64,000 bases of DNA from Escherichia coli. GTDB taxonomy: Bacteria > Pseudomonadota > Gammaproteobacteria > Enterobacterales > Enterobacteriaceae. Position numbers and translations under genes: made by a program. Location of the stretch: the NCBI RefSeq assembly GCF_003790525.1, contig NZ_CP033635.1; one strand, given 5' to 3'. Positions 5,099-59,773 of the stretch are shown here, in pieces. Positions within the stretch are counted from its first letter, which is position 1; each line of letters starts with the position of its first letter. The notes beneath the pieces are model-generated. The model was not told the origin of the DNA. It worked only from the letters and a program-made list of their open reading frames with translations, and made no database searches.

Positions 5099-6061
5099 TT
5101 ACGTCTCCTCTTGGGAGTGGATAATATGGGTGCCTGTTTCGCCACGCAGTGCCGCGGACAGGCATTCAGGCGTGGTGATAATCACTCTTTTACCTCCACG
5201 TTCCAGGAACTCCAGACTGGCAAGAATCTTCGGTAACATACTCCCAGGCGGGAAGTGACCCTCCTGCATGTAACGGGCCATCGTTAGGACATCCACTGTA
5301 TCCAGTGCATGCTGGTTGGGTTTCCCAAAATGAATACTCACTTTTTCCACGCCGGTGGTGATCACCAGAATGTCGGCGTGAATTTCGCGAGCCAGTAGCG
5401 CGCTAGAGAGATCTTTGTCGATAACCGCGTCCACGCTTTGGTAATCCCCTGCGTCAGTACGCACCACCGGAATGCCACCGCCGCCCGCGCCAATCACCAC
5501 AAAGCCTTGCTGGATCAGAGTCTTAATGGCAGGTGCTTCGACAATACGTTTCGGTTCCGGCGAGGCGACCACGCGGCGATAGCCCCGTCCGGCATCTTCA
5601 ACAAAACGCCAGTCAGGGTTTGCCTTTTGTAGTTCATCACGCTGGTTTTCACTAAAGAATGCACCGATGGGCTTGGTGGGATGGACAAACCCCGGATCGT
5701 TTTTATCCACTTCCACCTGAGTCACCACGGTGACGGCTTTTTTCTCGCCGTGAGGCGCCAGCCGGTTGTTCAGCGCCTGCTGGATCAGATAGCCAATGCC
5801 GCCTTGCGTATCCGCCACACAGTTCGCCAGCGGCGTTAAGGGTAGCCCTTCGCGCTCGTGGGCTATCTCCGCGCGGCGTAAATCCAGACCGACCTGCGGC
5901 CCGTTGCCGTGGGTCAGCACAATGTCGTAATCGGAAGCCAGCATTTCCAGAACCGTATCGGCGACGGCCTTCACCGCCTCCGCCTGATGCTCAATCGACT
6001 GGCTGGCGTTATCTTTGATAATGCTGTTGCCACCAATGGCAACGACCACAAGTTCTTTCAT
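5099..6061 (-). CDS. Carbamate kinase (ArcC/YahI-like)
   Basis: 320 aa beginning MKELVVVAIGGNSI, with DIVLTHGNGPQVG and a GGGGIPV motif characteristic of the carbamate kinase / amino acid kinase fold. Last gene of the minus-strand operon. Confidence 0.8.
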   Translation of the reverse strand: MKELVVVAIGGNSIIKDNASQSIEHQAEAVKAVADTVLEMLASDYDIVLTHGNGPQVGLDLRRAEIAHEREGLPLTPLANCVADTQGGIGYLIQQALNNRLAPHGEKKAVTVVTQVEVDKNDPGFVHPTKPIGAFFSENQRDELQKANPDWRFVEDAGRGYRRVVASPEPKRIVEAPAIKTLIQQGFVVIGAGGGGIPVVRTDAGDYQSVDAVIDKDLSSALLAREIHADILVITTGVEKVSIHFGKPNQHALDTVDVLTMARYMQEGHFPPGSMLPKILASLEFLERGGKRVIITTPECLSAALRGETGTHIIHSQEET

Positions 6062-6087
6062 AGAATTATCTTCCGTTTGCAGGCTAT

Positions 6088-7638
6088 TCAGGTCGTTTTA
6101 GTCTCTTCCTGCTCAGACGCAGCCACTGTTTCACGGCTATCAATAACATGCTTGAGGGCAAACATAGCAAGCATCATCAGGTAGGCCACAACAAACACAA
6201 TCGAGCTGCCTTCCGCAAAGCCAACCGCTGGGGAGTGAATCACGCCAAACAGCGATAACAGTGCTCCAAAGGATGCAGCTATCGCCCCGCGCAGCGGCTT
6301 ATTCATAATGGCAAAGATCGCAATGCATCCCCACAGCATGCTGGCCAGCGGTGCACCGCTTCCCAGATGCATCAGTCCATCGTAATAGACGCCTTTGCTG
6401 TGCAACAGGTCGCTACCAAGTTTCTCAGCGGATGTTCCGGCTGCGCCCATCACGCTGTTAACGATGGTCAATGCCCAGTTGGCGACCCATGGGAACAGAC
6501 AGATGAAAATAACGGGAACCTCGACTTTAGGAGTTTCTCGCACCACCTGATTGGCGGTTACCACACCGATAAAAACCAGAATTGGCACTATAGCAGTCAT
6601 GGGAATAATGGCGAGCATAAACGCGCCCAACCCAAACAATGGCACCAGGAACATAGTGATGCCTGATGCGAGGGTATAGCAGATACTAGCGCCCATAGCT
6701 TTCCAGCCTGCATGCCCAACATATACGGTTACCGGGAACGGATTACCCAGCATGCAACCGAGCATGGAGGCAAAGCCGTTCGCCATCATGACCTTACGGG
6801 TGTTGTATTCATCACCAGCCGCGTGCGCACTTTCAATGTTCTCGAGGTCAAAAATGTAGTTAGCCAGGCCCAAAGGAACTGCAGAAGCCAGATATGGCAG
6901 AGCGTGCGGCAAACCTTGCAGGAAGCTCCTTACATGAATTTCCGGCGGGTTGAAGCCGAAGGAAGACATCGACGCTTTAATGTCTTCCGGGCTTTGTAAA
7001 CCGGATATCCACGCTAGGGACGTACCAGCAATCAGCAACAGCAAACCGGTAGGAATATGGGGAAAAATCGGCTTCTTACCGAACCAGTTAATGAAGATCA
7101 ATAACAGGACGATGAAAGAAACTGTCGGCGCTTCGAACGCTTGCAGCATCGGGTTCATTGCCAGCAGTAATAACCCCAGTCCGGACAGACAAGAAAGCAG
7201 CACTGTACGCGGGATCATCTTGCGGATAGTCTCACCCAGGAAGGAGCCACCGACCAGGATCAACGCTTCGACAAAGCACCACACCAATCCTATCTGAATA
7301 GCAAAGTTGGCATCTTTGGTTTGCTGATAAACCGGCATCAGCACCAGGAATGTCACGGTAAAGATTGAGGGTGCGCTCGGTCCAGACGGCAGCGCCGTTA
7401 CATCGCTACGACCGGTTTTCTTCACCATCTGTAGACCAAACCAGGAGTAGCAGACACTGGCCGCCAGCACTGCAAGACCAAAGGCAGGCGCAATGCGTCC
7501 ATAGACAATTTCAGTAGGGATTCCGACGACAAAAATTAGCAGACCCATCATTGTCAGCAGGTTAGTCAGATTGTTGGTCATCAGTCCAAAGTAAGCCGCC
7601 CAGTCACCACGTTTCCATTCTAGTTTTATGCTGTTCAT
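6088..7638 (-). CDS. Polytopic membrane permease (possibly NCS2/AzgA-like nucleobase-type transporter)
   Basis: 516 aa, highly hydrophobic with many predicted TM segments, embedded between the DUF1116 and carbamate kinase genes. Family assignment is tentative. Confidence 0.45.
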   Translation of the reverse strand: MNSIKLEWKRGDWAAYFGLMTNNLTNLLTMMGLLIFVVGIPTEIVYGRIAPAFGLAVLAASVCYSWFGLQMVKKTGRSDVTALPSGPSAPSIFTVTFLVLMPVYQQTKDANFAIQIGLVWCFVEALILVGGSFLGETIRKMIPRTVLLSCLSGLGLLLLAMNPMLQAFEAPTVSFIVLLLIFINWFGKKPIFPHIPTGLLLLIAGTSLAWISGLQSPEDIKASMSSFGFNPPEIHVRSFLQGLPHALPYLASAVPLGLANYIFDLENIESAHAAGDEYNTRKVMMANGFASMLGCMLGNPFPVTVYVGHAGWKAMGASICYTLASGITMFLVPLFGLGAFMLAIIPMTAIVPILVFIGVVTANQVVRETPKVEVPVIFICLFPWVANWALTIVNSVMGAAGTSAEKLGSDLLHSKGVYYDGLMHLGSGAPLASMLWGCIAIFAIMNKPLRGAIAASFGALLSLFGVIHSPAVGFAEGSSIVFVVAYLMMLAMFALKHVIDSRETVAASEQEETKTT

Positions 7639-7750
7639 GGAATCTCCTTAACAGGTTAAGCATCGTTTGCGATCATGGAGATCGCCCAGCCCTGAAGGTA
7701 AACAACGTTTTCCGCTACTGTGGGGCTAACTGCGTTAGCCCCGGTTATTG

Positions 7751-9169
7751 TTATTGGCAGTAGTGGTCACGCCAGTTGAGGATCGCCTTTTCAAAACAAG
7801 TGAACGGCGGGTGAACAATTCCTGCGCCGATCATGCCGATCCCTGCGTCTTTGTGCGCAATGGCTGTGTTAATTACCGGCAGAATGCCTGTACTGCCTAC
7901 ACGTGTAATATCGATAGCGGTCGGTACGCCCATAAAACCAAGCAGGGGAATGGTGACGTTGGGGTTTTCTCCGAGAGTGATTTCTCTCATTTTACGTGAG
8001 AAATCAATAGCTTCCTCAACTGTTCCGCCCACCAGTGACACAATAGCTGGTGCCGTCGCCATAGCGAAACCGCCAACGCCGTAGGTTTCGGTAATTGCAC
8101 TATCACCGATATCACGTCCGGAATCCTCTAGCTTATAGCCCGCAAACATCGGCCCAATCACCTGCTGCGCCGGACCGGTAAACCACTGGCCCGGCAAACC
8201 GCTAATACGAAGACCGAACTCAACACCATTGCGTGCCATCGTTGTCACCACGGTGCTGTATTCAATGCCGTGCGCAGCGTCCATTGCGGCTTTACACATT
8301 GCCATCCATGTTGGTCCTGAGAAGTAATCACTACTGAGGACAAACTCGAACACCTCACGCTGCTGCTCAACAGGGTAGCCAGTCTGAATAATCCACGGCG
8401 TCAGCGTCTGAATCAGCAGCGCCGTCCCGGCGTTGTTGCGGTTATGGCACTCATCGCCCATATGCAGCGCCTGCGCTAACATCAAGTGCAGATCGATTTC
8501 GCCCGCCAGCTTCATAGCATCGCGCAACATAGGTCCCAGTACATCTCGCATCCAGTTAAGACGCTCTATAACGCTCTGGTCGTTAGCGCCCATACGCAGG
8601 ATCTTTGCCATCTGCTCGCTCATATTGGTATATGCGCGGTTTCCATAGGTTTTGTTCTCGACGATGTGCATAAACATCGATGCAGACGTGACACCCGCCA
8701 TTGAGCCGACACAGTCATGTTCGTGGCACGGAGAGAAGATGATTTCACCTGAAGCAGCTAGTTCGGCGGCATCATCCAGATCTTTCGCCAGTCCTTCAAA
8801 TACCAGAGCCCCGGTTACTGCGCCCTTCATTGCGCCGCACATTTTTTCCCAGTGGATTGGCGGCCCGGCGTGAAGGATAGTGTTACGGGTCATACCCGGC
8901 ACGACGTTGATCGCCTGATCATAGCCAATTAGCACAGGATGCGACTGGATAATGCGTTCCAGCGCCAGCTGATTAGCAGCTGCAATTTTGTCTGCCAGTG
9001 GTGAAGCGGCAATGTCGTCCAGTGCCGTTACCACTTGTATGTTTCCTTGGCCTGGCGGTGTCCAGTCAAGTTGGGTTACCGGTACATTCTGCTTTTTCAT
9101 GTCATCGCTGAACATTTCGATACCGACATTAATAACGTTCAGCGGCTGATTAAACAGTGTCTGGCTCAT
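7751..9169 (-). CDS. DUF1116-family protein (YahG/YlbE/AllG-like, putative carbamoyltransferase subunit)
   Basis: 472 aa. Its start codon overlaps the upstream FdrA-like stop by one base (TGATG), indicating translational coupling. Same size and operon position as K-12 YahG. Confidence 0.7.
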   Translation of the reverse strand: MSQTLFNQPLNVINVGIEMFSDDMKKQNVPVTQLDWTPPGQGNIQVVTALDDIAASPLADKIAAANQLALERIIQSHPVLIGYDQAINVVPGMTRNTILHAGPPIHWEKMCGAMKGAVTGALVFEGLAKDLDDAAELAASGEIIFSPCHEHDCVGSMAGVTSASMFMHIVENKTYGNRAYTNMSEQMAKILRMGANDQSVIERLNWMRDVLGPMLRDAMKLAGEIDLHLMLAQALHMGDECHNRNNAGTALLIQTLTPWIIQTGYPVEQQREVFEFVLSSDYFSGPTWMAMCKAAMDAAHGIEYSTVVTTMARNGVEFGLRISGLPGQWFTGPAQQVIGPMFAGYKLEDSGRDIGDSAITETYGVGGFAMATAPAIVSLVGGTVEEAIDFSRKMREITLGENPNVTIPLLGFMGVPTAIDITRVGSTGILPVINTAIAHKDAGIGMIGAGIVHPPFTCFEKAILNWRDHYCQ

Positions 9170-19737: not shown

Positions 19738-21240
19738 ATGAATATCAGAAAACTGTTTTGTCCGGGCGACACACCCCGGATTTTATTGTTTTTATTCTTT
19801 TTTGTTATTTCTGTGATAATCACAATTGCATGCGGATACACTGAGAAGAATGCCACAGGAAATGTGCTGCTTCTGTTTCTCCTTCTGCTCCTTGCACACA
19901 GAAATACCCTCACATCCATTACAACGCTGTTATTTCTGTTCTGTTGTGCACTGTATGCGCCTGCGGGTATGACGTACGGTAAAATCAACAACAGTTTTAT
20001 TGTCGCGTTGCTGCAGACCACGGCTGATGAGGCTGCAGAGTTTACCGGGATGATTCCTGTTTATCATTTTCTGGTCAGTGCCGCGATTCTGGTATTCATG
20101 GTGATTTTCTGGCGGACACACCACCGCGGTCACCGTAACTGGCTGGCACTGCTGCTGTTCGTATTATGCTCTGTAAACAGCTGGCCGTTGCGGATGGTTA
20201 AAGGAACTGTTGTGGGGACAACTGACACATTGCGTGAAATGCAACATTATAAACAACTGAGTCAGCACGGGGCTGACAACTGGAAAATCCTGCCGGGAAC
20301 ACCGTTATATGACACAATTGTTATTGTCACTGGTGAGAGTGTGCGCAGGGATTATATGTCGGTATATGGCTATCCCGTGCCAACCACGCCGTGGCTGAAT
20401 ACGGCTCCCGGTTTATTTATTGACGGCTATACATCGGCAGCAGCCAGTACCGTACCTTCCCTGAGCCGGACACTGATTTATGACTATGAGCAGAACCCTG
20501 ACTCCGGCAACAACGTGGTGGCGCTGGCAGCAAAAGCAGGATACAGCACATGGTGGATATCCAATCAGGGAAAGCTGGGGGAGCATGATACACGCATCTC
20601 TGTTATTGCTTCTGATGCGGAGCATACCGTTTTCCTCAAGAAAGGCAGCTTTGCTTCCCGTAAAACGGATGACATGTTGTTGTTACAGGAAACAGAACGT
20701 GCACTGGCGGATAAATCCTCTCCGAAGGTGATATTCCTGCACATGATTGGCTCTCATCCGAATCCGTGTGACCGACTTAACTCCTGGCCGAATCATTACC
20801 TGGAGCAGTATCCCCGAAAGGTTGCCTGTTACCTCGCCAGCATCAGTAAACTGGATAACTTTCTCGGTCAGCTTGATGGTATCCTTCGCCGGCATTCCCG
20901 TCATTTCGTCATGCTTTACTTTTCTGACCATGGGCTGTCGGTCAGCGACAGTGCTAATCCTGTTCATCATGATGGTCATGTGCAGGGAGGCTACAGCGTT
21001 CCCCTGATTATTACCGCCAGTGATATCACGTCTCATCAGTCCGTCAGCAGAAAAATCAGTGCCCGTCATTTCGCAGGTATTTTTCAGTGGCTGACCGGCA
21101 TTCGTACTGAAAATATACCGCCATTCAATCCGCTGACAGACGAAGATAATGAACCCGTTATGGTTTTTAACGGAGAGAGGAATGTACTGGCAGACAGTCT
21201 GAAACCACAGCCTCTGATTCTTCCGGTCAAGGGAAAATAA
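19738..21240 (+). CDS. Sulfatase-superfamily phosphoethanolamine transferase (EptA/YhbX-like membrane protein)
   Basis: 500 aa; hydrophobic N-terminal domain with several TM helices followed by a periplasmic sulfatase-like domain (VIVTGESVRRDYMSVYGY..., HMIGSHPNP..., LYFSDHG). Start codon is uncertain. Confidence 0.65.
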   Translation: MNIRKLFCPGDTPRILLFLFFFVISVIITIACGYTEKNATGNVLLLFLLLLLAHRNTLTSITTLLFLFCCALYAPAGMTYGKINNSFIVALLQTTADEAAEFTGMIPVYHFLVSAAILVFMVIFWRTHHRGHRNWLALLLFVLCSVNSWPLRMVKGTVVGTTDTLREMQHYKQLSQHGADNWKILPGTPLYDTIVIVTGESVRRDYMSVYGYPVPTTPWLNTAPGLFIDGYTSAAASTVPSLSRTLIYDYEQNPDSGNNVVALAAKAGYSTWWISNQGKLGEHDTRISVIASDAEHTVFLKKGSFASRKTDDMLLLQETERALADKSSPKVIFLHMIGSHPNPCDRLNSWPNHYLEQYPRKVACYLASISKLDNFLGQLDGILRRHSRHFVMLYFSDHGLSVSDSANPVHHDGHVQGGYSVPLIITASDITSHQSVSRKISARHFAGIFQWLTGIRTENIPPFNPLTDEDNEPVMVFNGERNVLADSLKPQPLILPVKGK

Positions 21241-24537: not shown

Positions 24538-24632
24538 TGGCGGAAGATCACAGGAGTCGAACCTGCCCGGGACCGCTGGCGGCCCCAACTGGATTTGAAG
24601 TCCAGCCGCCTCACCGGAGACGACGATCTTCC
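24538..24632 (-). tRNA. selC: tRNA-Sec (selenocysteine, selC)
   Basis: Reverse complement of 24538..24632 matches the 95-nt E. coli selC sequence (GGAAGATCGTCGTCTCCGGTGAGGCGGCTGGACTTCAAATCCAGTTGGGGCCGCCAGCGGTCCCGGGCAGGTTCGACTCCTGTGATCTTCCGCCA) as recalled. Confidence 0.9.
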
Positions 24633-28635: not shown

Positions 28636-28929
28636 TCTATTGAAGAATGCCGGATACGAATGGTTTTGTGTCGTATCCGGTAAATAATCTCACATCTGGT
28701 AATAAATATTTCTTCCATCGTATTTGCGAGCATGATCACGATTATTCATCACGAAAATGTGATCTGTGCTGAAAAATATCCCTTAACCGCCTTGCTTTGT
28801 TTTATCACTGTCCGGATTACGGACATATTTTAGTATTGTTGTGAAATTATTCTGCTTTATATTTACCCTCAGAGATGGCAACTGAAGCTCTTCCATATGG
28901 GGCTTCTTAATCTGTGATAAGGGTAAAAA

Positions 28930-30483
28930 ATGCAAATGATTACCTCGCGACAAAACAGATTATTACGATTCCTTCTACCACGAAGGGAATATACGACTAT
29001 TGTTACAATTGCCGGCTATTTAAATGTTTCGGAAAAAACCATTCAACGTGATTTACGTTTACTTGAGCAATGGCTGGGGCAATGGAGAATAAATGTTGAG
29101 AAGCGTGCTGGCGCGGGTGTGATGTTAAGCGCGGAGAATATTGCTGATTTGCTGCATCTTGATCATTTGTTGGGAGCAGAATGTGAAGAGATTGATGGTG
29201 TAATGAATAATGCCAGGCGCGTTAAAATAGCGTCGCAGTTATTAAGTGAAACACCGAATGAAACGTCGATCAGTAAATTGTCAGAACGCTACTTTATCAG
29301 CGGAGCCTCTATTGTTAATGACCTGAGAGTAATTGAGTCCTGGCTTGCGCCGTTGGGGTTATCATTGATCCGCAGCCCAAGTGGTACGCATATTGAAGGT
29401 AGTGAAGGGCAAGTCCGACAGGCAATGGCATTACTGATTAACGGCATTATTAACCATAATGAGCCGCAAGGTGTCGTGTATTCACGTCTGGATCCCGGAA
29501 GCTATAAAGCATTAGTCCATTATTTTGGAGAGGAAGAAGTGTTATTTGTCCAGTCATTGTTACTGGATATGGAAAATGAATTAAGTTGGTCTTTGGGAGA
29601 ACCTTATTACGTTAACATTTTTACTCACATCCTTATTATGATGTATCGCAACACGCACGGGAATGCGTTATCAAGAGAAGAAGATCAAACCAGGCAATAT
29701 GATGAAAATATCTTTAATGTTGCCAGTCAGATGATTCATAAGATAGAACAACGAATTGCACATACATTGCCCGATGATGAAGTCTGGTTTATTTATCAAT
29801 ATATCATTTCATCAGGTGTGGCGATTGATGGACAAAAAGATGTGAGCATTATTTCACATATGCAGGCCAGCAATGAAGCGCGTCTGATTACCTGGCGTTT
29901 AATTACGGTATTCAGTGACATCGTGGACTGCGATTTTAGTGAAGACAGCGCATTATATGATGGCTTAATGGTGCATATTAAACCGCTGATTAACCGACTA
30001 AATTATCGTATTCATATCCGTAATCCATTGTTGGAAGATATTAAAGCAGAACTAGCGGATGTCTGGCGGTTGACGCAATATGTGGTGAATCAGGTATTTA
30101 AAACCTGGGGTGAGAATGCAGTGAGCGAGGATGAAGTGGGTTACCTGACCGTTCATTTTCAGGCTGCGATGGAGCGGCAAATTGCCCGTAAACGTGTATT
30201 ACTGGTCTGTTCAACCGGAATCGGAACTTCGCATCTACTGAAAAGCCGTATTCTGCGAGCATTTCCTGAATGGACGATTGTTGATGTTATTTCAGCAGCG
30301 AATTTATCACAGGTTTTGCCTGACAATATCGAACTGATTATTTCGACAATTAATTTGCCTACAGTCACTATGCCGGTCGCTTATGTTACCGCTTTTTTTA
30401 ATGATGCCGATATTAAGCGGGTCACTGAAATGGTGATTACGGAAAAATTACATCATGCGACGTCTCGGGTCGTTGAAATTTAA
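28930..30483 (+). CDS. PRD-domain transcriptional regulator with PTS EIIB-like domain (MtlR/LicR/ManR-type)
   Basis: 517 aa: N-terminal HTH, central PRD-like helical regions, C-terminal EIIB(Gat)-like segment LLVCSTGIGTSHLLKSRI. Confidence 0.7.
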   Translation: MQMITSRQNRLLRFLLPRREYTTIVTIAGYLNVSEKTIQRDLRLLEQWLGQWRINVEKRAGAGVMLSAENIADLLHLDHLLGAECEEIDGVMNNARRVKIASQLLSETPNETSISKLSERYFISGASIVNDLRVIESWLAPLGLSLIRSPSGTHIEGSEGQVRQAMALLINGIINHNEPQGVVYSRLDPGSYKALVHYFGEEEVLFVQSLLLDMENELSWSLGEPYYVNIFTHILIMMYRNTHGNALSREEDQTRQYDENIFNVASQMIHKIEQRIAHTLPDDEVWFIYQYIISSGVAIDGQKDVSIISHMQASNEARLITWRLITVFSDIVDCDFSEDSALYDGLMVHIKPLINRLNYRIHIRNPLLEDIKAELADVWRLTQYVVNQVFKTWGENAVSEDEVGYLTVHFQAAMERQIARKRVLLVCSTGIGTSHLLKSRILRAFPEWTIVDVISAANLSQVLPDNIELIISTINLPTVTMPVAYVTAFFNDADIKRVTEMVITEKLHHATSRVVEI

Positions 30484-30509
30484 TGTCAGAATTTTATGAG
30501 GTATGACGA

Positions 30510-30980
30510 ATGGACATAACAAAAATCCTGAATACGAATCGCGTTATTTTAGATATGCAAGCGACGAATAAAGCGGAGGCGATTGAAGAATTAACTAATC
30601 TTCTCAAAAAAGATGGTGCGATCGATTGTCGGGAAACCTTTATTAAAGATGTCTGGCAGCGCGAAGCGGAAGGCTCGACTGGTTTTGAAAATCATATTGC
30701 GATCCCGCATGGTAAATCTTCTGCGGTAATTAATACTACGCTGGCAATTGGCCGTACCCGCCAGGATATTCCCTGGGAAACGCTGGATGGCAGTAGCGTG
30801 CGCTGTATTATTTTATTTGCGGTACGTCTTGAAGATCAAAATACCACCCATATCCGTTTACTTTCCCAGGTCGCGGGCGCGCTGGCGGATGATGACATCA
30901 TAGAACAATTGTTAGTTGAGACGAGTCCGCAAAAAATCATTGATCTCTTTAGTCAGTATGCACAATCCGATGTCTGCTAA
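30510..30980 (+). CDS. PTS EIIA component (fructose/mannitol type-2 family)
   Basis: 156 aa with ENHIAIPHGKS active-site histidine region. Confidence 0.75.
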   Translation: MDITKILNTNRVILDMQATNKAEAIEELTNLLKKDGAIDCRETFIKDVWQREAEGSTGFENHIAIPHGKSSAVINTTLAIGRTRQDIPWETLDGSSVRCIILFAVRLEDQNTTHIRLLSQVAGALADDDIIEQLLVETSPQKIIDLFSQYAQSDVC

Positions 30981-30997
30981 ATAACAGGGAGTATGTC

Positions 30998-31312
30998 ATG
31001 AATATTGTCTGTGTTGCCGCCTGTACGGCGGGTATTGCTCATACCTATATTGCTCGTGAAAAGTTAATCAAAGGAGCAAAAGCTCTGGGCCATACCATTA
31101 AAGTTGAAACCCAGGGAACCATTGGTACAGAAAATGAATTACAGGCGGCAGATATCTCTGCTGCTGACGTCGTGATTCTTGCTGTAGATGTGAAAATAAA
31201 AGGAGAAGAACGCTTCACCAATAAACGTATTGTGCGAGTAAAGACAGAGATCGTCATTAAATCGCCCGTTCAATTTCTTGAAAAGGTCGAAAAATCACTG
31301 GGAAACAAATGA
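30998..31312 (+). CDS. PTS EIIB component (fructose-like)
   Basis: 104 aa; N-terminal active-site cysteine context MNIVCVAACTAGIAHTYIA. Confidence 0.75.
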   Translation: MNIVCVAACTAGIAHTYIAREKLIKGAKALGHTIKVETQGTIGTENELQAADISAADVVILAVDVKIKGEERFTNKRIVRVKTEIVIKSPVQFLEKVEKSLGNK

Positions 31313-31336
31313 TCCTTATACTGGAGGGATCTTAAT

Positions 31337-32428
31337 ATGAAAGAAAATAAAATTCCGGTTTCACAGGAAATTAAAAAACATTTATTAACCGGCATCTCGT
31401 GGATGATACCCCTTATTGTGGCCGCCGGGATATGTATTGCGTTGGGGCAAGTTCTTGGCGGTACAGATGTTGGTGAAAAAACAGGAACAATCCCGTGGAT
31501 GCTTAATCAGATTGGCGGCTGGGGAATGGGGCTGATTGTGCCGCTGATTAGCGCGGCAATTGCCTATTCTATTGCTGATCGTCCCGGTTTTGCCCCGGGC
31601 CTGATTGTCGGCTTTCTCTGTGGGCAAATCCATACCGGATTTATTGGCGGTATGTTGGGTGGTTTCCTGGTGGGCTACACCATTTTGCTACTTAAACGCT
31701 ATATCCGCCTGCCGCAGTCGATGCAAGGACTCATGCCAATCATGGTGTTGCCGGTATTAAGCACCATTATCGGTGGGCTGTTAATGATGACGCTGATTGG
31801 TAAACCCATCGCCTGGTTACAAGAAGCACTGATTCATTTGCTCGAGTCGATGCAGGGCGGATCGCGCTTCCTGATGGGGGCCATACTTGGCGCGATGGCA
31901 ACCTTCGATTTCGGTGGTCCGGTCAACAAAACCATGTCGCTGTTTTCCGATGGCTTGCTGGTCAGTGGCGTCTACGGACCAGAAGCCGTGAAATTTGTCG
32001 GCTCAATCATCCCTCCGTTTGGCATCACACTTTCGTTCTTACTGACACGGCATAAATACACCCGTGCGGAGCGCGAGGCGCTGAAAGCCGCGTTTCCGAT
32101 GGGGATCTGCATGATCACTGAAGGAGTCATTCCGATCGCCGCGCGTGACCTGCTGCGAGTAGTGGGATCTTGTGTGGTGGCATCGGCGGTCGCGGGCGGC
32201 TTAATCATGGTGTGGGGCGTGGAGAGTCCGGTTCCGCATGGCGGCATGTTTGTTGTGCCTCTGTTCACCCATCCTCTGCTGTTTTGCCTGGCGCTGGGTA
32301 TAGGCACGGTGATTTGTGGCGTGATGCTTTCACTCTGGAAGAAACCGGTAACGGAACGCGACGAAGAGTTTGACGAACTGAGCGATCAAAAGCTGAAAGA
32401 TGAAGAGATCACTTTCACCCTCGAATAA
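31337..32428 (+). CDS. PTS EIIC permease (fructose-like)
   Basis: 363-aa polytopic membrane protein immediately after EIIA and EIIB. Confidence 0.75.
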   Translation: MKENKIPVSQEIKKHLLTGISWMIPLIVAAGICIALGQVLGGTDVGEKTGTIPWMLNQIGGWGMGLIVPLISAAIAYSIADRPGFAPGLIVGFLCGQIHTGFIGGMLGGFLVGYTILLLKRYIRLPQSMQGLMPIMVLPVLSTIIGGLLMMTLIGKPIAWLQEALIHLLESMQGGSRFLMGAILGAMATFDFGGPVNKTMSLFSDGLLVSGVYGPEAVKFVGSIIPPFGITLSFLLTRHKYTRAEREALKAAFPMGICMITEGVIPIAARDLLRVVGSCVVASAVAGGLIMVWGVESPVPHGGMFVVPLFTHPLLFCLALGIGTVICGVMLSLWKKPVTERDEEFDELSDQKLKDEEITFTLE

Positions 32429-32439
32429 CCGGAGGCCCT

Positions 32440-33291
32440 ATGTTTGCCGATATGAAAAGTATGGTGATGAAAGCCTGGCATGAACATTACGCCTTACTGG
32501 CGATCAACTGTATGAATCTGGAAAGTGCTCACGCAGCTATCCGCGTGGCGGAGAAGAATCGCGCTCCGATCATTCTCAATCTCTATCAGGGGCATCTGGC
32601 GCATTTTCCAGCACCCGTCGCGGCGGCAGTGGTTAAAACGCTCGCGGAATCTGCCTCAGTACCGGTCGCTCTGGCGCTTGATCATGGCAAAAATCCGGAC
32701 TGTATTCGTCAGGCGTTTCGTGCTGGTTTCAGCGGATTAATGATTGATGCTTCTGCTTTTCCCCTGGAGGAAAACGTGCGCCAGACCAGGGCGGTGGTGG
32801 AACTCGCCGCCAGCGCGCAGCTCTGCGTGGAAGGCGAACTGGGCCATCTGGCAGATGCGCCGCGTTACGACCAGGCCGCCAATGCAGACCTGATGACGCA
32901 ACCCACTGATGTGGAAACGTTTATCGCGCAGACAGGCATTGATCTACTGGCCGTCTCGGTAGGCACGGCGCACGGCATGTACGCGCCTGGTGTTGTACCT
33001 GCTATTGATTTTCAGCGTCTGGCGGAGATTTTCCACTGCTCGAGCGTGCCTCTGGCATTACATGGCGGTAGCGGTACGCCGTTCGATCAGCTCCAGCTCT
33101 GTACGACGCTGGGGGTAGCAAAAATCAACGTGGGGGCGGCCATTTTTGAACGGGGGAAATCCGCGCTCCTGCATACCCTCTGTCACGATATATCCATTGA
33201 ACTGGTGGACGCGCTGAAAGCTATGGAACTGGCCTTCGAAGAAGCGATTACACCGTATTTACAGGCGAGCGGCTCTATCGGCAAAGCCTGA
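32440..33291 (+). CDS. Class II ketose-bisphosphate aldolase (GatY/KbaY/Fba-like), paralog 1
   Basis: 283 aa with class II aldolase signature (LALDHGKNPD, HGGSGTP). Confidence 0.7.
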   Translation: MFADMKSMVMKAWHEHYALLAINCMNLESAHAAIRVAEKNRAPIILNLYQGHLAHFPAPVAAAVVKTLAESASVPVALALDHGKNPDCIRQAFRAGFSGLMIDASAFPLEENVRQTRAVVELAASAQLCVEGELGHLADAPRYDQAANADLMTQPTDVETFIAQTGIDLLAVSVGTAHGMYAPGVVPAIDFQRLAEIFHCSSVPLALHGGSGTPFDQLQLCTTLGVAKINVGAAIFERGKSALLHTLCHDISIELVDALKAMELAFEEAITPYLQASGSIGKA

Positions 33292-33371
33292 TTCATTTTC
33301 TGTCATGGCCTTTATGCCAGTGCAATAACGCACCGGCAGGGCGGACTACACGCTGAAACTGGAGATTTAAC

Positions 33372-34232
33372 ATGTTAGTTTCGATGAAAGAATTACTGCA
33401 ACCTACCCGCCAGCACGGCTTTGCCATTGGCGCATTTAATGTGGCGGATAACTGTTTCCTTCGCGCAGTCGTGGATGAAGCAGAAGCGACAAATACTCCG
33501 GCGATTATTGCCATCCATCCCAGCGAACATGATTTTGTGGGCGATGCCTTTTTCGCTCACGTTCGCGAAATTACCCAGCGTAGTCCGGTCCCGTTTGTAC
33601 TGCACCTCGATCATGGTGCCTCTGTAGAGCATGTTTTGCGTGCGATTCGCTGCGGATTTACCTCAGTAATGATCGACGGTTCGCTGCTGCCGTATGAAGA
33701 AAACGTGGCGCTGACCGCAGAAGTGGTTCGCCTCGCTCACGCGGTTGGAGTGTCGGTTGAGGGTGAACTGGGAACCATCGGACAAACAGGAACGTCGGTA
33801 GAAGGTGGTGTTTCACAAGTGACCTACACAGATCCGGCGCAGGCCGCCGATTTTATTGCTCGTACAGGTGCCGACACTCTGGCTGTGGCGATTGGTACAG
33901 CGCATGGCATCTATCCAAAAGGGATGCAGCCGAAGCTGCAAATGGACATTTTGCGCGACATTGCCGGACGTATTGATATTCCGCTGGTGCTACACGGTGG
34001 TTCGGCAAACCCGGACGCGGAGATTGCTGAATCAGTTACGCTCGGCGTCGGCAAAATCAATATCTCCAGCGATATGAAATACGCCTATTTCCAGAAAGTG
34101 CGTGAAATTCTCGCTAAAGAGAGCTGGTGGGACCCGAACGTCATCTATCCGGATGCGATTAACGCGGCGCGGGAAGTCATTCGCCAGAAAATGAAACTGT
34201 TCGGTTCGATCGGTAAAGCGTCACTGTACTAA
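33372..34232 (+). CDS. Class II ketose-bisphosphate aldolase (GatY/KbaY/Fba-like), paralog 2
   Basis: 286 aa with class II aldolase signature (LHLDHGAS, VLHGGSANP, GVGKINISSD). Confidence 0.75.
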   Translation: MLVSMKELLQPTRQHGFAIGAFNVADNCFLRAVVDEAEATNTPAIIAIHPSEHDFVGDAFFAHVREITQRSPVPFVLHLDHGASVEHVLRAIRCGFTSVMIDGSLLPYEENVALTAEVVRLAHAVGVSVEGELGTIGQTGTSVEGGVSQVTYTDPAQAADFIARTGADTLAVAIGTAHGIYPKGMQPKLQMDILRDIAGRIDIPLVLHGGSANPDAEIAESVTLGVGKINISSDMKYAYFQKVREILAKESWWDPNVIYPDAINAAREVIRQKMKLFGSIGKASLY

Positions 34233-34279
34233 GCCAGAAGGGCGGGGCAACCCGCCTTTTACGCAACAAGGAACGAGAT

Positions 34280-35212
34280 ATGCACTATCTGGGGTTGGAT
34301 ATTGGTGGGACCAAAATCGCCGCCGTCGTCATGGATGCGCATGGCTGGGAGATTCGCCGTTACCGCTGCCCGACGCAAAAGTCGACATATCAACAATTTG
34401 TCTCATGCGTTGTGGCGCTTATCGAGCAGATTAGGCGGGACGTTCAACGACCGATGCTGACAGGGATCGCCTTACCCGGCAGTATCTCGCCACTCACTGG
34501 CCTGATTAAAAACGCGAATATTCAGGTGATTAACGGTCATGCGTTACAGGCTGATTTGCAGCAATTGCTTGGGCAACCGGTGGTGATAGCCAATGATGGT
34601 AACTGTTTCGCGCTATCAGAAGCTTGCGACGGTGCCGGGCAAGATTATGACGTGGTATTTGGTATTACGCTTGGTTCGGGCTGCGGCGGTGGCATTGCCA
34701 TCAAGCAACGACCGTTTATAGGGGCCTGGGGAAATGCTGCCGAATGCGGTCATATCACGTTGCCAGGCTATATGGAGCAGGAAGATGGTCCATCAGTCAG
34801 TTGCTATTGCGGCAAACACAACTGCGTGGAGTCGTTTGTTTCCGGCAGCGGTTTTAGTGAACGCTATCAACAGATGACTGGTAACTTGCTCACTCCTGCG
34901 GCGATTGTCACCCTGGCACAACGTGGTGATGCTTGTGCCATGCAGCAGGTGGCACGTTTTCGCCAACAGCTTGCCCGCACGCTGGCAACCATCGTTAACG
35001 TTGTTGACCCTGGCGTGATTGTCATCGGCGGCGGGCTTTCGAATGTGGAACTGCTTATCGCCGATCTGAACACAGAAGTCGCTCCTCTGGTTTTCACCGA
35101 CCAATTCACCACCCCCATTGTAAAAGCACTGCACGGCGACAGTAGCGGAATGCGTGGCGCTGCCTGGCTTGCTATGCGCAACGGAGAAGCCAATGAAACG
35201 TTCACAAATTAA
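34280..35212 (+). CDS. ROK-family sugar kinase
   Basis: 310 aa; N-terminal LGLDIGGTKIAAVV ATP-binding motif and cysteine-rich zinc motif (CYCGKHNC). Confidence 0.75.
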   Translation: MHYLGLDIGGTKIAAVVMDAHGWEIRRYRCPTQKSTYQQFVSCVVALIEQIRRDVQRPMLTGIALPGSISPLTGLIKNANIQVINGHALQADLQQLLGQPVVIANDGNCFALSEACDGAGQDYDVVFGITLGSGCGGGIAIKQRPFIGAWGNAAECGHITLPGYMEQEDGPSVSCYCGKHNCVESFVSGSGFSERYQQMTGNLLTPAAIVTLAQRGDACAMQQVARFRQQLARTLATIVNVVDPGVIVIGGGLSNVELLIADLNTEVAPLVFTDQFTTPIVKALHGDSSGMRGAAWLAMRNGEANETFTN

Positions 35213-35873
35213 TTATGTTATTGATAAAGCACATGCCATTGCGCAGACCTTCCGCGTTTGTTTGCCAGAGTTCGCCTATTTTACGGTGGATGACTGGCTG
35301 CAGCTGGAACGGGATAACTGGCAAGAAGTGGTCGACTTACAGCTCGGTTGGGATATCACCGATTTTGGTCGTGGTGATTTCAACCAAACGGGACTAACAC
35401 TGCTAACGATGCGCAACGGCGCGCTGGGGGCGGCGGCATATCCAAAACCGTATGCTGAGAAAATGTTGCAGATCCAACAAGATCAGCAAACTCCCTGGCA
35501 TTTTCACACCCACAAAATGGAAGATATCCTCAATCGGGGCGGTGGAGACTTATGCATGCAGTTGGCCTGGGCCAACGAAGCCAATCTCTGTGATGATCAA
35601 CGAGTCATTACCGTGAGTGTTGATGGTCAGCGGCGTACCATGAAACCTGGTGAAACGCTGGTGCTAAAGCCGGGGCAGGGCATTTGCCTGCCGCCGCGTC
35701 TGTATCATCGCTTCTGGGCGGAAAAAGCGTTTGTTCTCGGCTGGGAAATCTCGATGGTAAATGATGACCAACACGATAACTATTTTCTTGAGCCGGGAGG
35801 ACGTTTTCCGGCGATAGAAGAAGATGAACCGGTGAAATGGTTATTGTGCAGTGAGTATGGAATTTTGCGCTAA
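35193..35873 (+). CDS. D-lyxose/D-mannose isomerase-like cupin
   Basis: About 226 aa from the ATG at 35193 (MKRSQINYVIDKAHAIA...); cupin-type metal site context (WHFHTHKMEDI). The start overlaps the ROK kinase 3' end by 20 nt. Confidence 0.65.
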   Translation: MKRSQINYVIDKAHAIAQTFRVCLPEFAYFTVDDWLQLERDNWQEVVDLQLGWDITDFGRGDFNQTGLTLLTMRNGALGAAAYPKPYAEKMLQIQQDQQTPWHFHTHKMEDILNRGGGDLCMQLAWANEANLCDDQRVITVSVDGQRRTMKPGETLVLKPGQGICLPPRLYHRFWAEKAFVLGWEISMVNDDQHDNYFLEPGGRFPAIEEDEPVKWLLCSEYGILR

Positions 35874-35882
35874 TAACGGGGA

Positions 35883-35918
35883 ACGCTAGCGCTGATATCC
35901 GCTAGCGTCCTTATTTTT
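35883..35918. terminator. Bidirectional hairpin between convergent lyxose-isomerase-like gene and yicH
   Basis: Perfect 9-bp stem acgctagcg / cgctagcgt with an 8-nt loop, followed by a T-rich tract. Confidence 0.5.
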
Positions 35919-37626
35919 ACTGCACCGACTCCGTCGACGTAACTTCACCACTGGAAACTACGCCCGCATTCATGGTTTGAGTCACTTGCTGCTTTGCGGC
36001 ATTCACGGCATGCAATTGCCCGCTAACCGTAGGTTTCAGCGGGATATTGGCCTGAATATTGCCGCTGGCGGTAAGCTGAATATTGCCGTCGCCAGTCAAC
36101 GGTAATTCAGGCCATCCCCACTGTTGCAAAATATTCACCGGCACACCGCGTCCATTCAGGCTGATATGGGTCTGACGTTGTGGCGTTTGTGAAACACTGG
36201 CGGTGGCTTCCAGAATGCCTTTTTCAGTAAATGCACTCAGTTCGCTGATATTCACCGTGCTGCTGTTGGCGGTCAGCGCCAGCGATGGGCGACGAACATC
36301 AACACGATTGAATGTCGCGGCGGCGGCATTCAGATTCGCCGAACCACTCCAGACGCCCCATTTATGATCGGTAACCAGCGTCAGGTTGGCACCGTAACCA
36401 TCGAGCGCGGTGAGCTGCCACGGGAAGTCAGGGTCGATATCAATGATCAGATTGCGGCTGGCGCTAAATCTCTTCAGTTGCAGGCTGTTTAACCAACCGG
36501 GTGTCGTTTCCATCCACAACTGTTGCCAGTTTTTTGGCAAGGTATATTCCAGTCCGGCAATTGCCGCATCATCGAGGATCAACATTTTCCCGTCACGCAA
36601 CCAGTTCCCTGACGTTCTGACCATGCCCCCTTCCCAGCGGCTGGTGAACTGGCGCAGTGCTACGCCCTGCGGGGAAAATTCCGCGTTTATAATCGGATCA
36701 AATAAATGCAGCGAGCCATAAATAAACTCGCTGGCGTTCATCGACAGTTTACCTTCCTGTGTCTGCCAGTCATCTTTACTGAAGGTCATGTTGCGCAAGC
36801 TGAGATCGAGGTCGGTCACCGCCCAGTCCGGACCTTGCAAACGAGCGTCGATGACTTCCAGGCGACCAATCTGCAACGACGGGACAGAGCGTAATGGCGC
36901 AAAGAAGTCGGTTAGCGATTTTTCGCTTTGTAGACGGATATCCGCCATGCGCAGGTTTTCCACTTGCCAGCTGCCGTCAGCGTTACGCTGCGCGTTTCCG
37001 GTTAATGTCCCGCGGGCGATGTCGGCACCCAGGTTAGTCAGCGTAACGCGATCGTTATCAATACTGCCTTCAATCAGTACATTGGTGGCAGGAACATCAT
37101 TGAGCGAAAGCGATCCGGCACTAAACTGAATCTGCGCCTTCGTACCCAGCACTTTACCGGCTTCTGGTGACCAAGGAACCACGCCGCCATTTACCCGCTG
37201 CGCGCTCAGTTTCCATTCGCTATTCGGGCTATTAAACGCCATATCACGTAGTTGCAGACGATCGGCTTTGAACGGTAGCGGCGCGGTCTGGTCGGTGAGA
37301 TTCAGCGTCCCGTTTTCCAGCAGGATGGTATCGACATGGCGTGGTTCGGTCAGTTGCCGACTGCTTAGCGCAATGTCGACACTTTTTGCCACCAGGGTCG
37401 CGGGCTGGCCATCACGGCCAAACGTGACGTTCTCCAGCACGATATGAGATGGCGCGGAAAAACGGTGATCCATCGCCCCGAAGGCCAGATGATAGTCGCT
37501 ATTCTCGGAAACCCATGCGCTGATATGTTCTGCTCCCCAGCGAGTTTGCAGCAGAAAATAGAGGCCAGCGATCACCACTAACAGAGCGATGAGAATGTAG
37601 AGAAGCAGCTTCCCAATAAATTTCAT
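35917..37626 (-). CDS. yicH: AsmA-family protein YicH
   Basis: Start chosen at MKFIGKLLLYILIALL (569 aa), with N-terminal signal anchor. Confidence 0.85.
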   Translation of the reverse strand: MKFIGKLLLYILIALLVVIAGLYFLLQTRWGAEHISAWVSENSDYHLAFGAMDHRFSAPSHIVLENVTFGRDGQPATLVAKSVDIALSSRQLTEPRHVDTILLENGTLNLTDQTAPLPFKADRLQLRDMAFNSPNSEWKLSAQRVNGGVVPWSPEAGKVLGTKAQIQFSAGSLSLNDVPATNVLIEGSIDNDRVTLTNLGADIARGTLTGNAQRNADGSWQVENLRMADIRLQSEKSLTDFFAPLRSVPSLQIGRLEVIDARLQGPDWAVTDLDLSLRNMTFSKDDWQTQEGKLSMNASEFIYGSLHLFDPIINAEFSPQGVALRQFTSRWEGGMVRTSGNWLRDGKMLILDDAAIAGLEYTLPKNWQQLWMETTPGWLNSLQLKRFSASRNLIIDIDPDFPWQLTALDGYGANLTLVTDHKWGVWSGSANLNAAAATFNRVDVRRPSLALTANSSTVNISELSAFTEKGILEATASVSQTPQRQTHISLNGRGVPVNILQQWGWPELPLTGDGNIQLTASGNIQANIPLKPTVSGQLHAVNAAKQQVTQTMNAGVVSSGEVTSTESVQ

Positions 37627-59410: not shown

Positions 59411-59761
59411 AGTAAATAGCTGACTTATGGATGTGCTGGGGATTCTATGTATTTAGCTGTGGCTTTACCATTACTTTTCCCGTTTTTGACTTAAATAGCA
59501 ATTTACCCGCCAATTCTTGCTGAACATCTATACTTTTTTTGTATTTTTATGCGATTCATTGATTTCTGCAGTACGTGCAGGAAGGAATCGCAGAGCAACA
59601 GTAAAAGAATATGGTTGCTAATGATTTTATTTGATTGATTTCTTTATTGAAAATCAACAATGTGCTTAAAAATCATTCGGGTCGGATTGCCGCGAAAGAA
59701 GTGATACACTAGCGCGTCAATATCAGTGCGGTATCAGTATTCAGGTAGCTGTTGAGCCTGG

Positions 59762-59773
59762 GGCGGTAGCGTG
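59762..59773 (+). promoter_or_regulatory. ops element (GGCGGTAGCGTG) within a JUMPstart-like leader of the waaQ operon
   Basis: Exact 12-nt ops motif on the coding strand about 50 nt upstream of the waaQ start, in the waaA-waaQ divergent intergenic region. Confidence 0.7.

Follow-up and report, generated by a model that had tools for sequence, protein, structure and literature searches.

The frz operon between yicI and yicH of Escherichia coli: a conserved six-gene core and a tentative kinase-free route for ketose catabolism

Introduction

A 64,000-nucleotide stretch of Escherichia coli DNA (contig NZ_CP033635.1 of assembly GCF_003790525.1; hereafter the window) carries a block of eight co-directional carbohydrate genes between yicI and yicH. 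This block is, almost beyond doubt, the frz operon of extraintestinal pathogenic E. coli (ExPEC). The frz system has been known since 2009, when the operon was reportedly described in the avian ExPEC strain BEN2908 (Rouquet et al. 2009, J Bacteriol 191:4427). The 2026 BEN2908 genome paper, which cites the 2009 work, places the 7227-bp frz operon between yicH and yicI as genomic region GR27. A comparative study of strain CFT073 lists the same eight genes as c4481-c4488, labelled 'PTS system, fructose specific' (PTS, phosphotransferase system).

Reviews treat frz as one operon that helps the cell to survive late stationary phase, oxygen restriction, serum and the gut, and that favours the ON orientation of the type 1 fimbriae (fim) switch. 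The operon is associated with virulent avian pathogenic E. coli (APEC) and ExPEC. APEC virulence typing uses it as a marker, and links have been drawn to the fitness of ExPEC, to colonisation of the gut and to expression of type 1 fimbriae. In the literature searched, no transported sugar is named. As long as no substrate is named, frz may be either a nutrient-use trait or a signalling device.

Several described systems resemble frz in whole or in part. The literature equates lmo2133-lmo2138 of Listeria monocytogenes with ExPEC frz. This locus, known here from the literature, has the same core of a fructose-like PTS, two class II aldolases and a regulator. Unlike E. coli frz, it has no ROK kinase or isomerase in the published gene lists. 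The GatYZ and KbaYZ systems for galactitol and N-acetylgalactosamine likewise combine a PTS with a zinc aldolase of family PF01116 that has the same catalytic residues, and GatY is 33-35% identical to both Frz aldolases. Their PTS is of the Gat or Man family, the partner GatZ or KbaZ is a non-catalytic protein of another family, and the bisphosphate is bound by Arg257. Frz, by contrast, pairs two PF01116 paralogues and has no Arg257. YdjI (by annotation, an L-glycero-L-galacto-octuluronate-1-phosphate aldolase) is 31-37% identical to the Frz aldolases. Both YdjI and SqiA, a sulfofructose-1-phosphate aldolase, have the fold and zinc site of the Frz aldolases and, like them, no arginine for the distal phosphate. 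In those two pathways uptake does not involve a PTS and a PfkB-type kinase then phosphorylates the substrate, whereas in Frz the phosphate would come from the PTS itself.

The regulator and the isomerase also have described relatives. MtlR, LicR, ManR and Mga/AtxA share with the Frz regulator two N-terminal helix-turn-helix (HTH) domains, two PTS regulation domains (PRDs) and an EIIB(Gat)-like domain with its cysteine. The Frz protein lacks the C-terminal EIIA domain of MtlR and LicR. EcSI/Z5688, the structurally solved D-lyxose/D-mannose isomerase of O157:H7 (PDB 3KMH, 3MPB), belongs to the same cupin family as the Frz isomerase, PF07385, and shares its His/Glu/His metal motif. Only about half of the residues are identical, however, and O157:H7 has no DNA-level frz counterpart.

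Here we compare the window locus with these systems. The comparison defines a minimal core, predicts an operator, argues from shared synteny for ancestry and speaks against a bisphosphate intermediate. The explanation as a whole, which joins identity, regulation, catabolism, accessory genes and evolution, is in our judgement marginally probable; its parts differ in strength and are weighed separately below.

Results

Identity of the eight-gene block

Eight open reading frames (ORFs) lie on the + strand of the window at 28930-35873, between yicI and yicH. All eight are intact. They stand where a first-pass annotation of this DNA had placed them, and the disruption that it had allowed for is not seen. 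A K-12 derivative has yicI and yicH in convergent orientation, with a spacer of 52 bp that contains one hairpin; this bears out the same annotation's description of the two genes as neighbours in K-12. A junction alignment delimits the DNA that is extra relative to K-12 as ~28683 to ~35912 (~7.2 kb). Its size and its position between yicI and yicH fit region GR27 of BEN2908.

Reportedly, the frz operon consists of genes for an activator, for the three subunits of a fructose-type PTS, for two class II aldolases, for a ROK kinase and for a cupin. The window block, with eight genes of these types in ~7.2 kb, fits this membership. In locus, position, the eight gene types and size, it shows no structural difference from the BEN2908 operon or from c4481-c4488 of CFT073. 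Published frz PCR primers, printed with their 843-bp product in a veterinary paper (PMC6238794), match the window exactly at 29335-29354 (+) and 30158-30177 (-), 843 bp apart. The amplicon (29335-30177) falls inside the regulator gene. Gene by gene, the window copy is 98.8-99.7% identical to that of ST131.

Of 5426 complete E. coli genomes searched, 1605 carry the operon, and no copy falls below 95% identity; in this search K-12 and O157:H7 were without it. A diverged paralogous islet in O157:H7 was considered and rejected at the DNA level; a distant blastn search gave only true frz copies, at 95% or above. The earlier remark that similar islets occur in pathogenic E. coli, with no sugar established, was therefore correct: the islet is the published frz operon, for which the literature searched names no sugar.

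Operon layout and boundaries

The eight proteins were assigned to families with NCBIfam and Pfam models, which upheld the family calls made at first pass for the regulator, the three PTS subunits, the aldolases, the ROK kinase and the cupin. The regulator gene (28930-30483) encodes 517 residues with the domain order HTH_11, Mga HTH, PRD, PRD and an EIIB(Gat)-like domain that includes Cys427. Three PTS genes follow. EIIA, of the fructose/mannitol type (30510-30980), has an intact His67 in the phosphorylation motif AIPHG. EIIB, of the fructose type (30998-31312), has an intact Cys9 in CTAGIAHT. EIIC, of the fructose family (31337-32428), scores 311 bits against TIGR01427, above the cut-off of 158.

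Two paralogous class II (zinc) aldolase genes come next. Aldolase 1 (32440-33291) matches PF01116 and has the catalytic Asp/His/Glu/His/His set. Aldolase 2 (33372-34232) matches PF01116 and also NF006042 (526 bits; cut-off 405). The last two genes encode a ROK sugar kinase (34280-35212), nearest to the manno/fructokinase Mak, and a cupin sugar isomerase of the D-lyxose/D-mannose family (35193-35873; PF07385, Lyx_isomer). All eight genes are on the + strand, separated by gaps of 11-80 nt except for a single 20-nt overlap. This overlap (35193-35212), reported previously, is borne out: the isomerase ATG is at 35193 and the ROK stop codon TAA at 35210-35212. The isomerase start at 35193 is the RefSeq start in strain SMS-3-5; the ORF list gives a longer, GTG-started frame from 35154.

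Two hairpins had been described as bounding the block. Both exist, though their coordinates shift by a few bases and the left one does not belong to the block. The left hairpin (28648-28682, +; 12-bp stem, -18.3 kcal/mol, z -2.6) is of the terminator type and follows yicI. In the junction alignment it is homologous to the lone hairpin of the K-12 yicI/yicH spacer, and it is therefore part of the flank rather than of the extra DNA. The right hairpin (35878-35912, +; -19.3 kcal/mol, z -3.0) is followed by the U-run UUAUUUUU and has the form of an intrinsic terminator. It is part of the extra DNA, adjoins the stop codon of the convergent yicH (35917-35919) and is the predicted terminator of the frz operon. 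The frz block is a single transcription unit.

A stem-loop at 33307-33342 (+) lies in the 80-nt spacer between the two aldolase genes (33292-33371). The spacer is conserved across six genera, with mostly invariant stem pairs and little covariation. One possible role is in processing or stabilising the mRNA, by which the stem-loop would set the ratio of the two aldolases. An Rfam scan found no known RNA family inside the islet.

The regulator and its upstream region

In the Frz regulator, Cys427 of the C-terminal PTS_IIB domain lies within VCSTGIGTS. Pfam detects no CAT (RNA-binding) domain, and only the PRDs match BglG-family models. Because this RNA-binding domain is missing, the RefSeq name 'BglG family transcription antiterminator' is misleading. 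The architecture instead points to a DNA-binding PRD activator of the MtlR/LicR/Mga kind, although the protein falls below the cut-off of every curated regulator family.

Upstream elements were compared in a ten-genus alignment, and one palindrome was surveyed over 67 Enterobacterales loci. A predicted CRP-like site, TGCGA-N6-TCACG (28725-28740), is conserved in several genera upstream of the regulator gene. A second predicted CRP-like element (28758-28773) has a near-invariant left half, AAATGTGATCT, and a weak right half; its TGTGA half-site is at 28758-28762. Farther downstream, the palindrome TGTCC-N7-GGACA (28809-28825) is a predicted operator, with conserved arms and a freely varying spacer. 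Its arms are present in 62 of the 67 loci, ~21 nt before the TTTAGTATTG box. The same palindrome stands upstream of the regulator gene in four Enterococcus loci, whose regulators are only 27-29% identical to that of E. coli. In the 64-kb window it occurs once, and it was not found there in front of yicJI.

The palindrome is followed by a predicted promoter (28829-28863, +), with TTGTTG as the -35 element (28836-28841) and TATATT as the -10 element (28858-28863). The box TTTAGTATTGT (28829-28839) is invariant in the ten-genus alignment, and the -10 element sits within the likewise invariant TATATTTA. An antiterminator (RAT) leader at hairpin 28809-28825 was considered and rejected. The N-terminus of the regulator carries HTH domains where an antiterminator has CAT, conservation of the hairpin is confined to its 5-nt arms, and the predicted -35 lies downstream of it.

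From these elements, a regulatory scheme can be proposed. A sigma-70 promoter with a weak -35 would be activated by the first product of the operon. This regulator would bind the predicted operator, TGTCC-N7/8-GGACA, just upstream of the -35, with cAMP-CRP assisting (step 1). Frz EIIA and EIIB, together with HPr, would switch the regulator through its PRDs and the EIIB-like Cys427, according to substrate transport (step 2). We consider the scheme as a whole fairly probable. Its promoter, CRP sites and operator are predictions from sequence, which weighs against firmer wording.

A six-gene core with optional accessory genes

To follow the locus outside E. coli we scanned one genome per species, and the aldolase-1 gene was found in 71 loci. 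The order regulator, EIIA, EIIB, EIIC, aldolase 1, aldolase 2 is constant in 70 loci of other species, drawn from three phyla. Among the loci, the ROK kinase and the isomerase can each occur without the other. Both occur in E. coli, Klebsiella, Kosakonia and Phytobacter. Most Citrobacter and Superficieibacter have the isomerase without the kinase, and Brenneria and Mangrovibacter have the kinase without the isomerase. Pantoea, Erwinia and Pectobacterium have neither; in Pantoea the six-gene core stands alone. It also stands alone in Enterococcus durans, between tuf and rpsJ, where no further gene hints at a substrate. Six-gene loci were found in Pediococcus and Lactobacillus as well, and the range of the core includes Enterococcus, Listeria and Sebaldella. 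On this comparison the conserved unit is the six-gene core only, with the ROK kinase and the isomerase as optional additions. The suggestion of a rare pentose as substrate, made at first pass, leaned on these two genes, which are accessory and not core.

Both accessory proteins keep motifs of their families. The ROK kinase has intact motifs (DIGGT at 7, the ROK signature at 131 and the zinc residues H158/C175/C177/C182). It has no N-terminal HTH, and kinase-model alignments begin at residues 1-4, so the protein is probably a sugar kinase and not a ROK repressor. The Frz isomerase aligns over its full length with PDB 3KMH (222 bits, E 6e-65, about half of the residues identical). The metal motif HfHxxxxE with its later H, FWAE and DDxHDN are conserved between the two. 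The isomerase remains under the NF051472 equivalog cut-off (272 bits; 350 required).

Isomerases of this family also turn up beside aldolases elsewhere. A short PF07385 isomerase, 24% identical to that of E. coli, follows aldolase 2 in Sebaldella, in Marinilactibacillus and in a metagenome contig; the contig adds a ROK kinase and a mannose-6-phosphate isomerase. A Salmonella isomerase that is 61% identical to the Frz one is clustered with a class II aldolase, a PfkB kinase, an alcohol dehydrogenase and a major facilitator superfamily (MFS) transporter. The association of this isomerase family with this type of aldolase is thus recurrent, with the isomerase outside the minimal system. In the proposed mechanism, the isomerase and the ROK kinase would be lineage-specific additions that connect the matching free aldose/ketose pair, with the stereochemistry of D-lyxose/D-mannose, with this route or with central metabolism.

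The survey brought up several other gene arrangements. The Salmonella enterica cluster (locus L090, 5598-12438) consists of genes for the MFS transporter, the Lyx-type isomerase, the aldolase, PfkB, a zinc alcohol dehydrogenase and a DeoR regulator. Its neighbours are genes for a type IV pilus, SSB and topoisomerase and point to an integrative or plasmid-like element. The cluster resembles a version of the frz chemistry that works without a PTS. In Klebsiella aerogenes (L003/L004, 13503-17671) and in loci L024 and L032, extra genes lie between the frz isomerase gene and yicH; they encode an RpiR-type regulator, a GH4 6-phospho-glucosidase and a PTS EIICB. In a Brenneria assembly (L009; Logan SRR9097969), the frz core and the ROK kinase sit in the middle of a nif nitrogenase cluster. 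Two metagenome contigs (L011/L012, 1-3470) have a second, simpler module directly upstream of a frz-like cluster. This module comprises a PRD regulator with an EIIA domain, one class II aldolase and a fused EIIABC, with no kinase. Its aldolase is 53% identical to Frz aldolase 2 and is without the distal-phosphate arginine.

Evolution of the yicI/yicH site

The block was first described as inserted between yicI and yicH. A comparison of this junction across genomes, suggested in the same annotation, gives a different picture. The same placement between yicI and yicH is found in Citrobacter, Klebsiella, Superficieibacter, Phytobacter and another Escherichia species, five genera in all. Between E. 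coli and Citrobacter, mean protein identity is ~88% for Frz and ~87% for the flanking YicJ, YicI and YicH. Between E. coli and Klebsiella it is ~81% for both. Nucleotide identities agree with these values, so that the divergence of frz matches that of its flanks. Within 28683-35912 there is no integrase, transposase, insertion sequence (IS) element or tRNA target, and direct or inverted repeats flanking the block are at chance level only. Insertion by a mobile element was rejected on these two grounds. ST131, ST38 and SMS-3-5 all carry frz. We take these to represent phylogroups B2, D and F.

The shared site in five genera, the flank-like divergence and the lack of mobility signs together make it more likely that the K-12 state is a deletion than that the frz state is an insertion. 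Loss is the more economical history, and 'inserted' is not supported as a description. We therefore consider it rather likely that frz is an old resident of the yicI/yicH site that was lost in K-12-type lineages.

Alternatively, frz could be a pathogenicity islet that ExPEC lineages gained by horizontal transfer into the yicI/yicH junction. Its absence from K-12 and O157:H7 and its tie to virulent APEC and ExPEC are what such an islet would show, and several observations weigh on the same side, against long residence. Between SMS-3-5 and ST131, frz is 98.8-99.7% identical and the flanks 97.4-98.7%, so frz is slightly less diverged than its surroundings between phylogroups. Salmonella serovar Ituri has frz elsewhere, upstream of yicJ and beside an integrase fragment. 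Together, the likeness of the SMS-3-5 and ST131 copies and the Ituri placement indicate that some lateral movement has occurred. The proportion of G and C at third codon positions (GC3) is low, at 0.35-0.42, in the regulator, EIIA and EIIB genes. An ancient transfer between phyla is implied by EIIB and EIIC, whose identity to the Sebaldella and Marinilactibacillus proteins is 69-79%. The one-genome-per-species scan returned no other named Escherichia species and no Salmonella representative, and this patchy occurrence means that a purely vertical history requires several losses.

On the other side, GC3 steps up within the operon, and the remaining five genes have host-like values of 0.52-0.59. 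Across hosts, frz GC3 shifts partly toward each host's level, yet it stays below the flanks in Klebsiella. An islet gained in ExPEC lineages is also hard to square with a site and a flank-like divergence common to five genera, with the missing mobility genes and repeats, and with ST131, ST38 and SMS-3-5 all being frz-positive. Acquisition of this kind therefore seems unlikely, though not remote. The GC3 dip of the regulator, EIIA and EIIB genes is also seen in Citrobacter, Klebsiella, Kosakonia and Mangrovibacter, and not in Pantoea or Brenneria.

Aldolases and the proposed catabolic route

In both aldolases and in all aligned orthologues, the Asp-His pair, the catalytic Glu and two further zinc-binding His are kept. 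The idea that aldolase 1 is a dead partner like GatZ was rejected, since all its zinc and catalytic residues are conserved in 10 orthologues. The two aldolase lineages are only ~32% identical, yet they stand side by side in every locus. Their conservation is unequal, at 52-93% for aldolase 2 and 35-95% for aldolase 1.

Aldolase 1 is beneath all 20 NCBIfam cut-offs. Aldolase 2 passes only broad subfamily models, TIGR00167 (261 bits; cut-off 216) and NF006042, which is named 'hypothetical protein'. Neither Frz aldolase exceeds the cut-off of a curated bisphosphate-aldolase equivalog.

In the Helicobacter pylori enzyme, Arg280 binds the 6-phosphate from the partner protomer, and its equivalent is Ala257 in class II sulfofructose-1-phosphate aldolases (PMC10665668). 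Arg257 of GatY, in the motif Asp255-Pro-Arg257, aligns with this Arg280. In aldolase 2 the DPR motif is replaced by DPN, with Asn in every orthologue from E. coli to Enterococcus. In the orthologue alignment of aldolase 1, the C-terminal third has no conserved Arg and no counterpart of Arg257. YdjI is likewise without the distal-phosphate Arg, as is the Salmonella aldolase encoded beside the PfkB kinase.

Gene content points in the same direction. In none of the 70 loci, across three phyla, is there a PfkB- or FruK-type kinase gene next to the core. The missing kinase gene and the missing distal-phosphate Arg together favour direct cleavage of a ketose-1-phosphate, and they count against the phosphorylated ketose-bisphosphate intermediate that had been suggested earlier. 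In the route we propose, a fructose-family EIIABC would import a ketose and phosphorylate it, most likely at C1 (step 1). Both zinc aldolases would then split this mono-phosphorylated ketose into dihydroxyacetone phosphate (DHAP) and an unphosphorylated aldehyde (step 2), with no bisphosphate step. On these grounds this kinase-free cleavage is plausible, although we stop short of calling it probable.

Several points tell against this route. In galactitol catabolism the housekeeping enzyme PfkA phosphorylates tagatose-6-phosphate, so a missing kinase gene is not decisive. Loss of one Arg is no proof of lost bisphosphate binding, because aldolase 2 retains a Lys that aligns with H. pylori Arg259. 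For aldolase 1, alignment of the C-terminal part is uncertain. Finally, not all fructose-family EII proteins phosphorylate C1; the mannosylglycerate transporter belongs to the same family.

The same loan from central metabolism would allow a bisphosphate route. The ketose phosphate made by the PTS would be phosphorylated again by housekeeping FruK, PfkA or PfkB, and the Frz proteins would act as fructose-bisphosphate- or tagatose-bisphosphate-type aldolases. The borrowed PfkA of galactitol catabolism, by which an absent kinase gene proves nothing, is a precedent. Both enzymes are PF01116 proteins with the full zinc and catalytic set, aldolase 2 has its Lys and beats the cut-off of TIGR00167, a 'ketose-bisphosphate aldolase' subfamily, and the RefSeq product names agree. 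The survey weighs against it. No PfkB- or FruK-type kinase accompanies the core in any locus, the distal-phosphate Arg is replaced in aldolase 2 and absent from aldolase 1, as in mono-phosphate aldolases, and aldolase 1 lies below every curated cut-off. We judge a bisphosphate route unlikely.

A further alternative divides the chemistry between the paralogues. One would act as a C4 epimerase by retro-aldol and aldol steps, to give a fructose phosphate for glycolysis, and the other as the aldolase; or the two would form a GatY/GatZ-like hetero-oligomer. Retention of both lineages everywhere under unequal constraint fits such a division, and PMC11907403 reports gat/kba aldolase-fold proteins as C4 epimerases. 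The catalytic residues are nevertheless identical in both Frz enzymes, and sequence alone cannot separate their roles. We regard a division of this kind as distinctly improbable.

Least likely of all, and in our view improbable, is that frz is mainly a sensing device whose PTS and regulator report a cue and alter the fim switch or stress fitness with little carbon flux: the published phenotypes (late-stationary, oxygen-restriction and serum fitness plus a fimS bias), the absence of any reported growth on a defined sugar in the literature searched and the Mga-type virulence-regulator architecture would suit it, but the catalytic and phosphorylation residues of the six enzyme and transporter genes are kept from Firmicutes to Enterobacterales in a fixed order, which indicates selection on a working catabolic pathway, and the one palindrome in the window precedes frz itself.

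Composition of the surrounding window

From 24538 to 63999 the window is 100% identical to E. coli SMS-3-5. The breakpoint at 24538 is the end of the tRNA-Sec gene. Positions 1-24537 hold a different selC island, 99.9% identical to strain TUM9803, which is without frz, and ~98% identical to ST38 strains. The ST38 strains also share the window's overall architecture at ~98%. No complete genome of the collection searched has the whole window at ~100%. Given the breakpoint at 24538, what is annotated upstream of selC in SMS-3-5 cannot be carried over to the window. The selC island ends there and is separate from the frz block.

Within this island, a gene at 19738-21240 (+) encodes a 500-residue phosphoethanolamine transferase. 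Its relation to CptA/EptA is distant (110 bits; cut-off 404), and it scores nowhere near any MCR model. The gene just upstream (18816-19556) encodes an Adr-like outer membrane protein. By TUM9803 annotation, 5099-11524 (-) is a cluster of carbamate kinase, xanthine permease, YlbE, FdrA and AllH-like genes. It resembles the chromosomal fdrA-ylbEF-arcC purine/oxamate genes. At the other end of the window, a JUMPstart element (Rfam RF01707, 55 bits) lies at 59735-59773 (+), in the waaA/rfaQ spacer of the lipopolysaccharide (LPS) core genes on the SMS-3-5 map. We take it to be an expected, known feature.

Discussion

The window locus is frz in gene content, position and sequence, and the comparison extends the system well beyond ExPEC. 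A broader statement, that the frz core is a widespread and unrecognised kinase-free pathway with a shared TGTCC-N8-GGACA operator and that the locus is ancestral in E. coli, is offered tentatively. In the proposed mechanism, the published fitness and type-1-fimbriae phenotypes would be downstream effects of Frz metabolism or of PTS signalling.

Sequence alone does not tell which sugar is transported. If the pathway is kinase-free, its substrate may be a ketose that common test panels do not yet include, for example a plant- or diet-derived heptulose, pentulose or rare hexulose. L-sorbose and D-tagatose have dedicated operons of their own in E. coli and are for this reason less attractive candidates. 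The comparative results do not answer the substrate question, but they make it easier to test. They provide handles in the six-gene core, in the predicted operator and promoter, and in the predicted preference of the aldolases for a mono-phosphate over a bisphosphate. They also provide many non-pathogenic hosts for a substrate search, such as Pantoea, Pectobacterium, Klebsiella and Enterococcus. If frz is indeed ancestral and was lost in the A/B1/E lineages, its link to 'virulent' phylogroups would reflect phylogeny and not acquired virulence.

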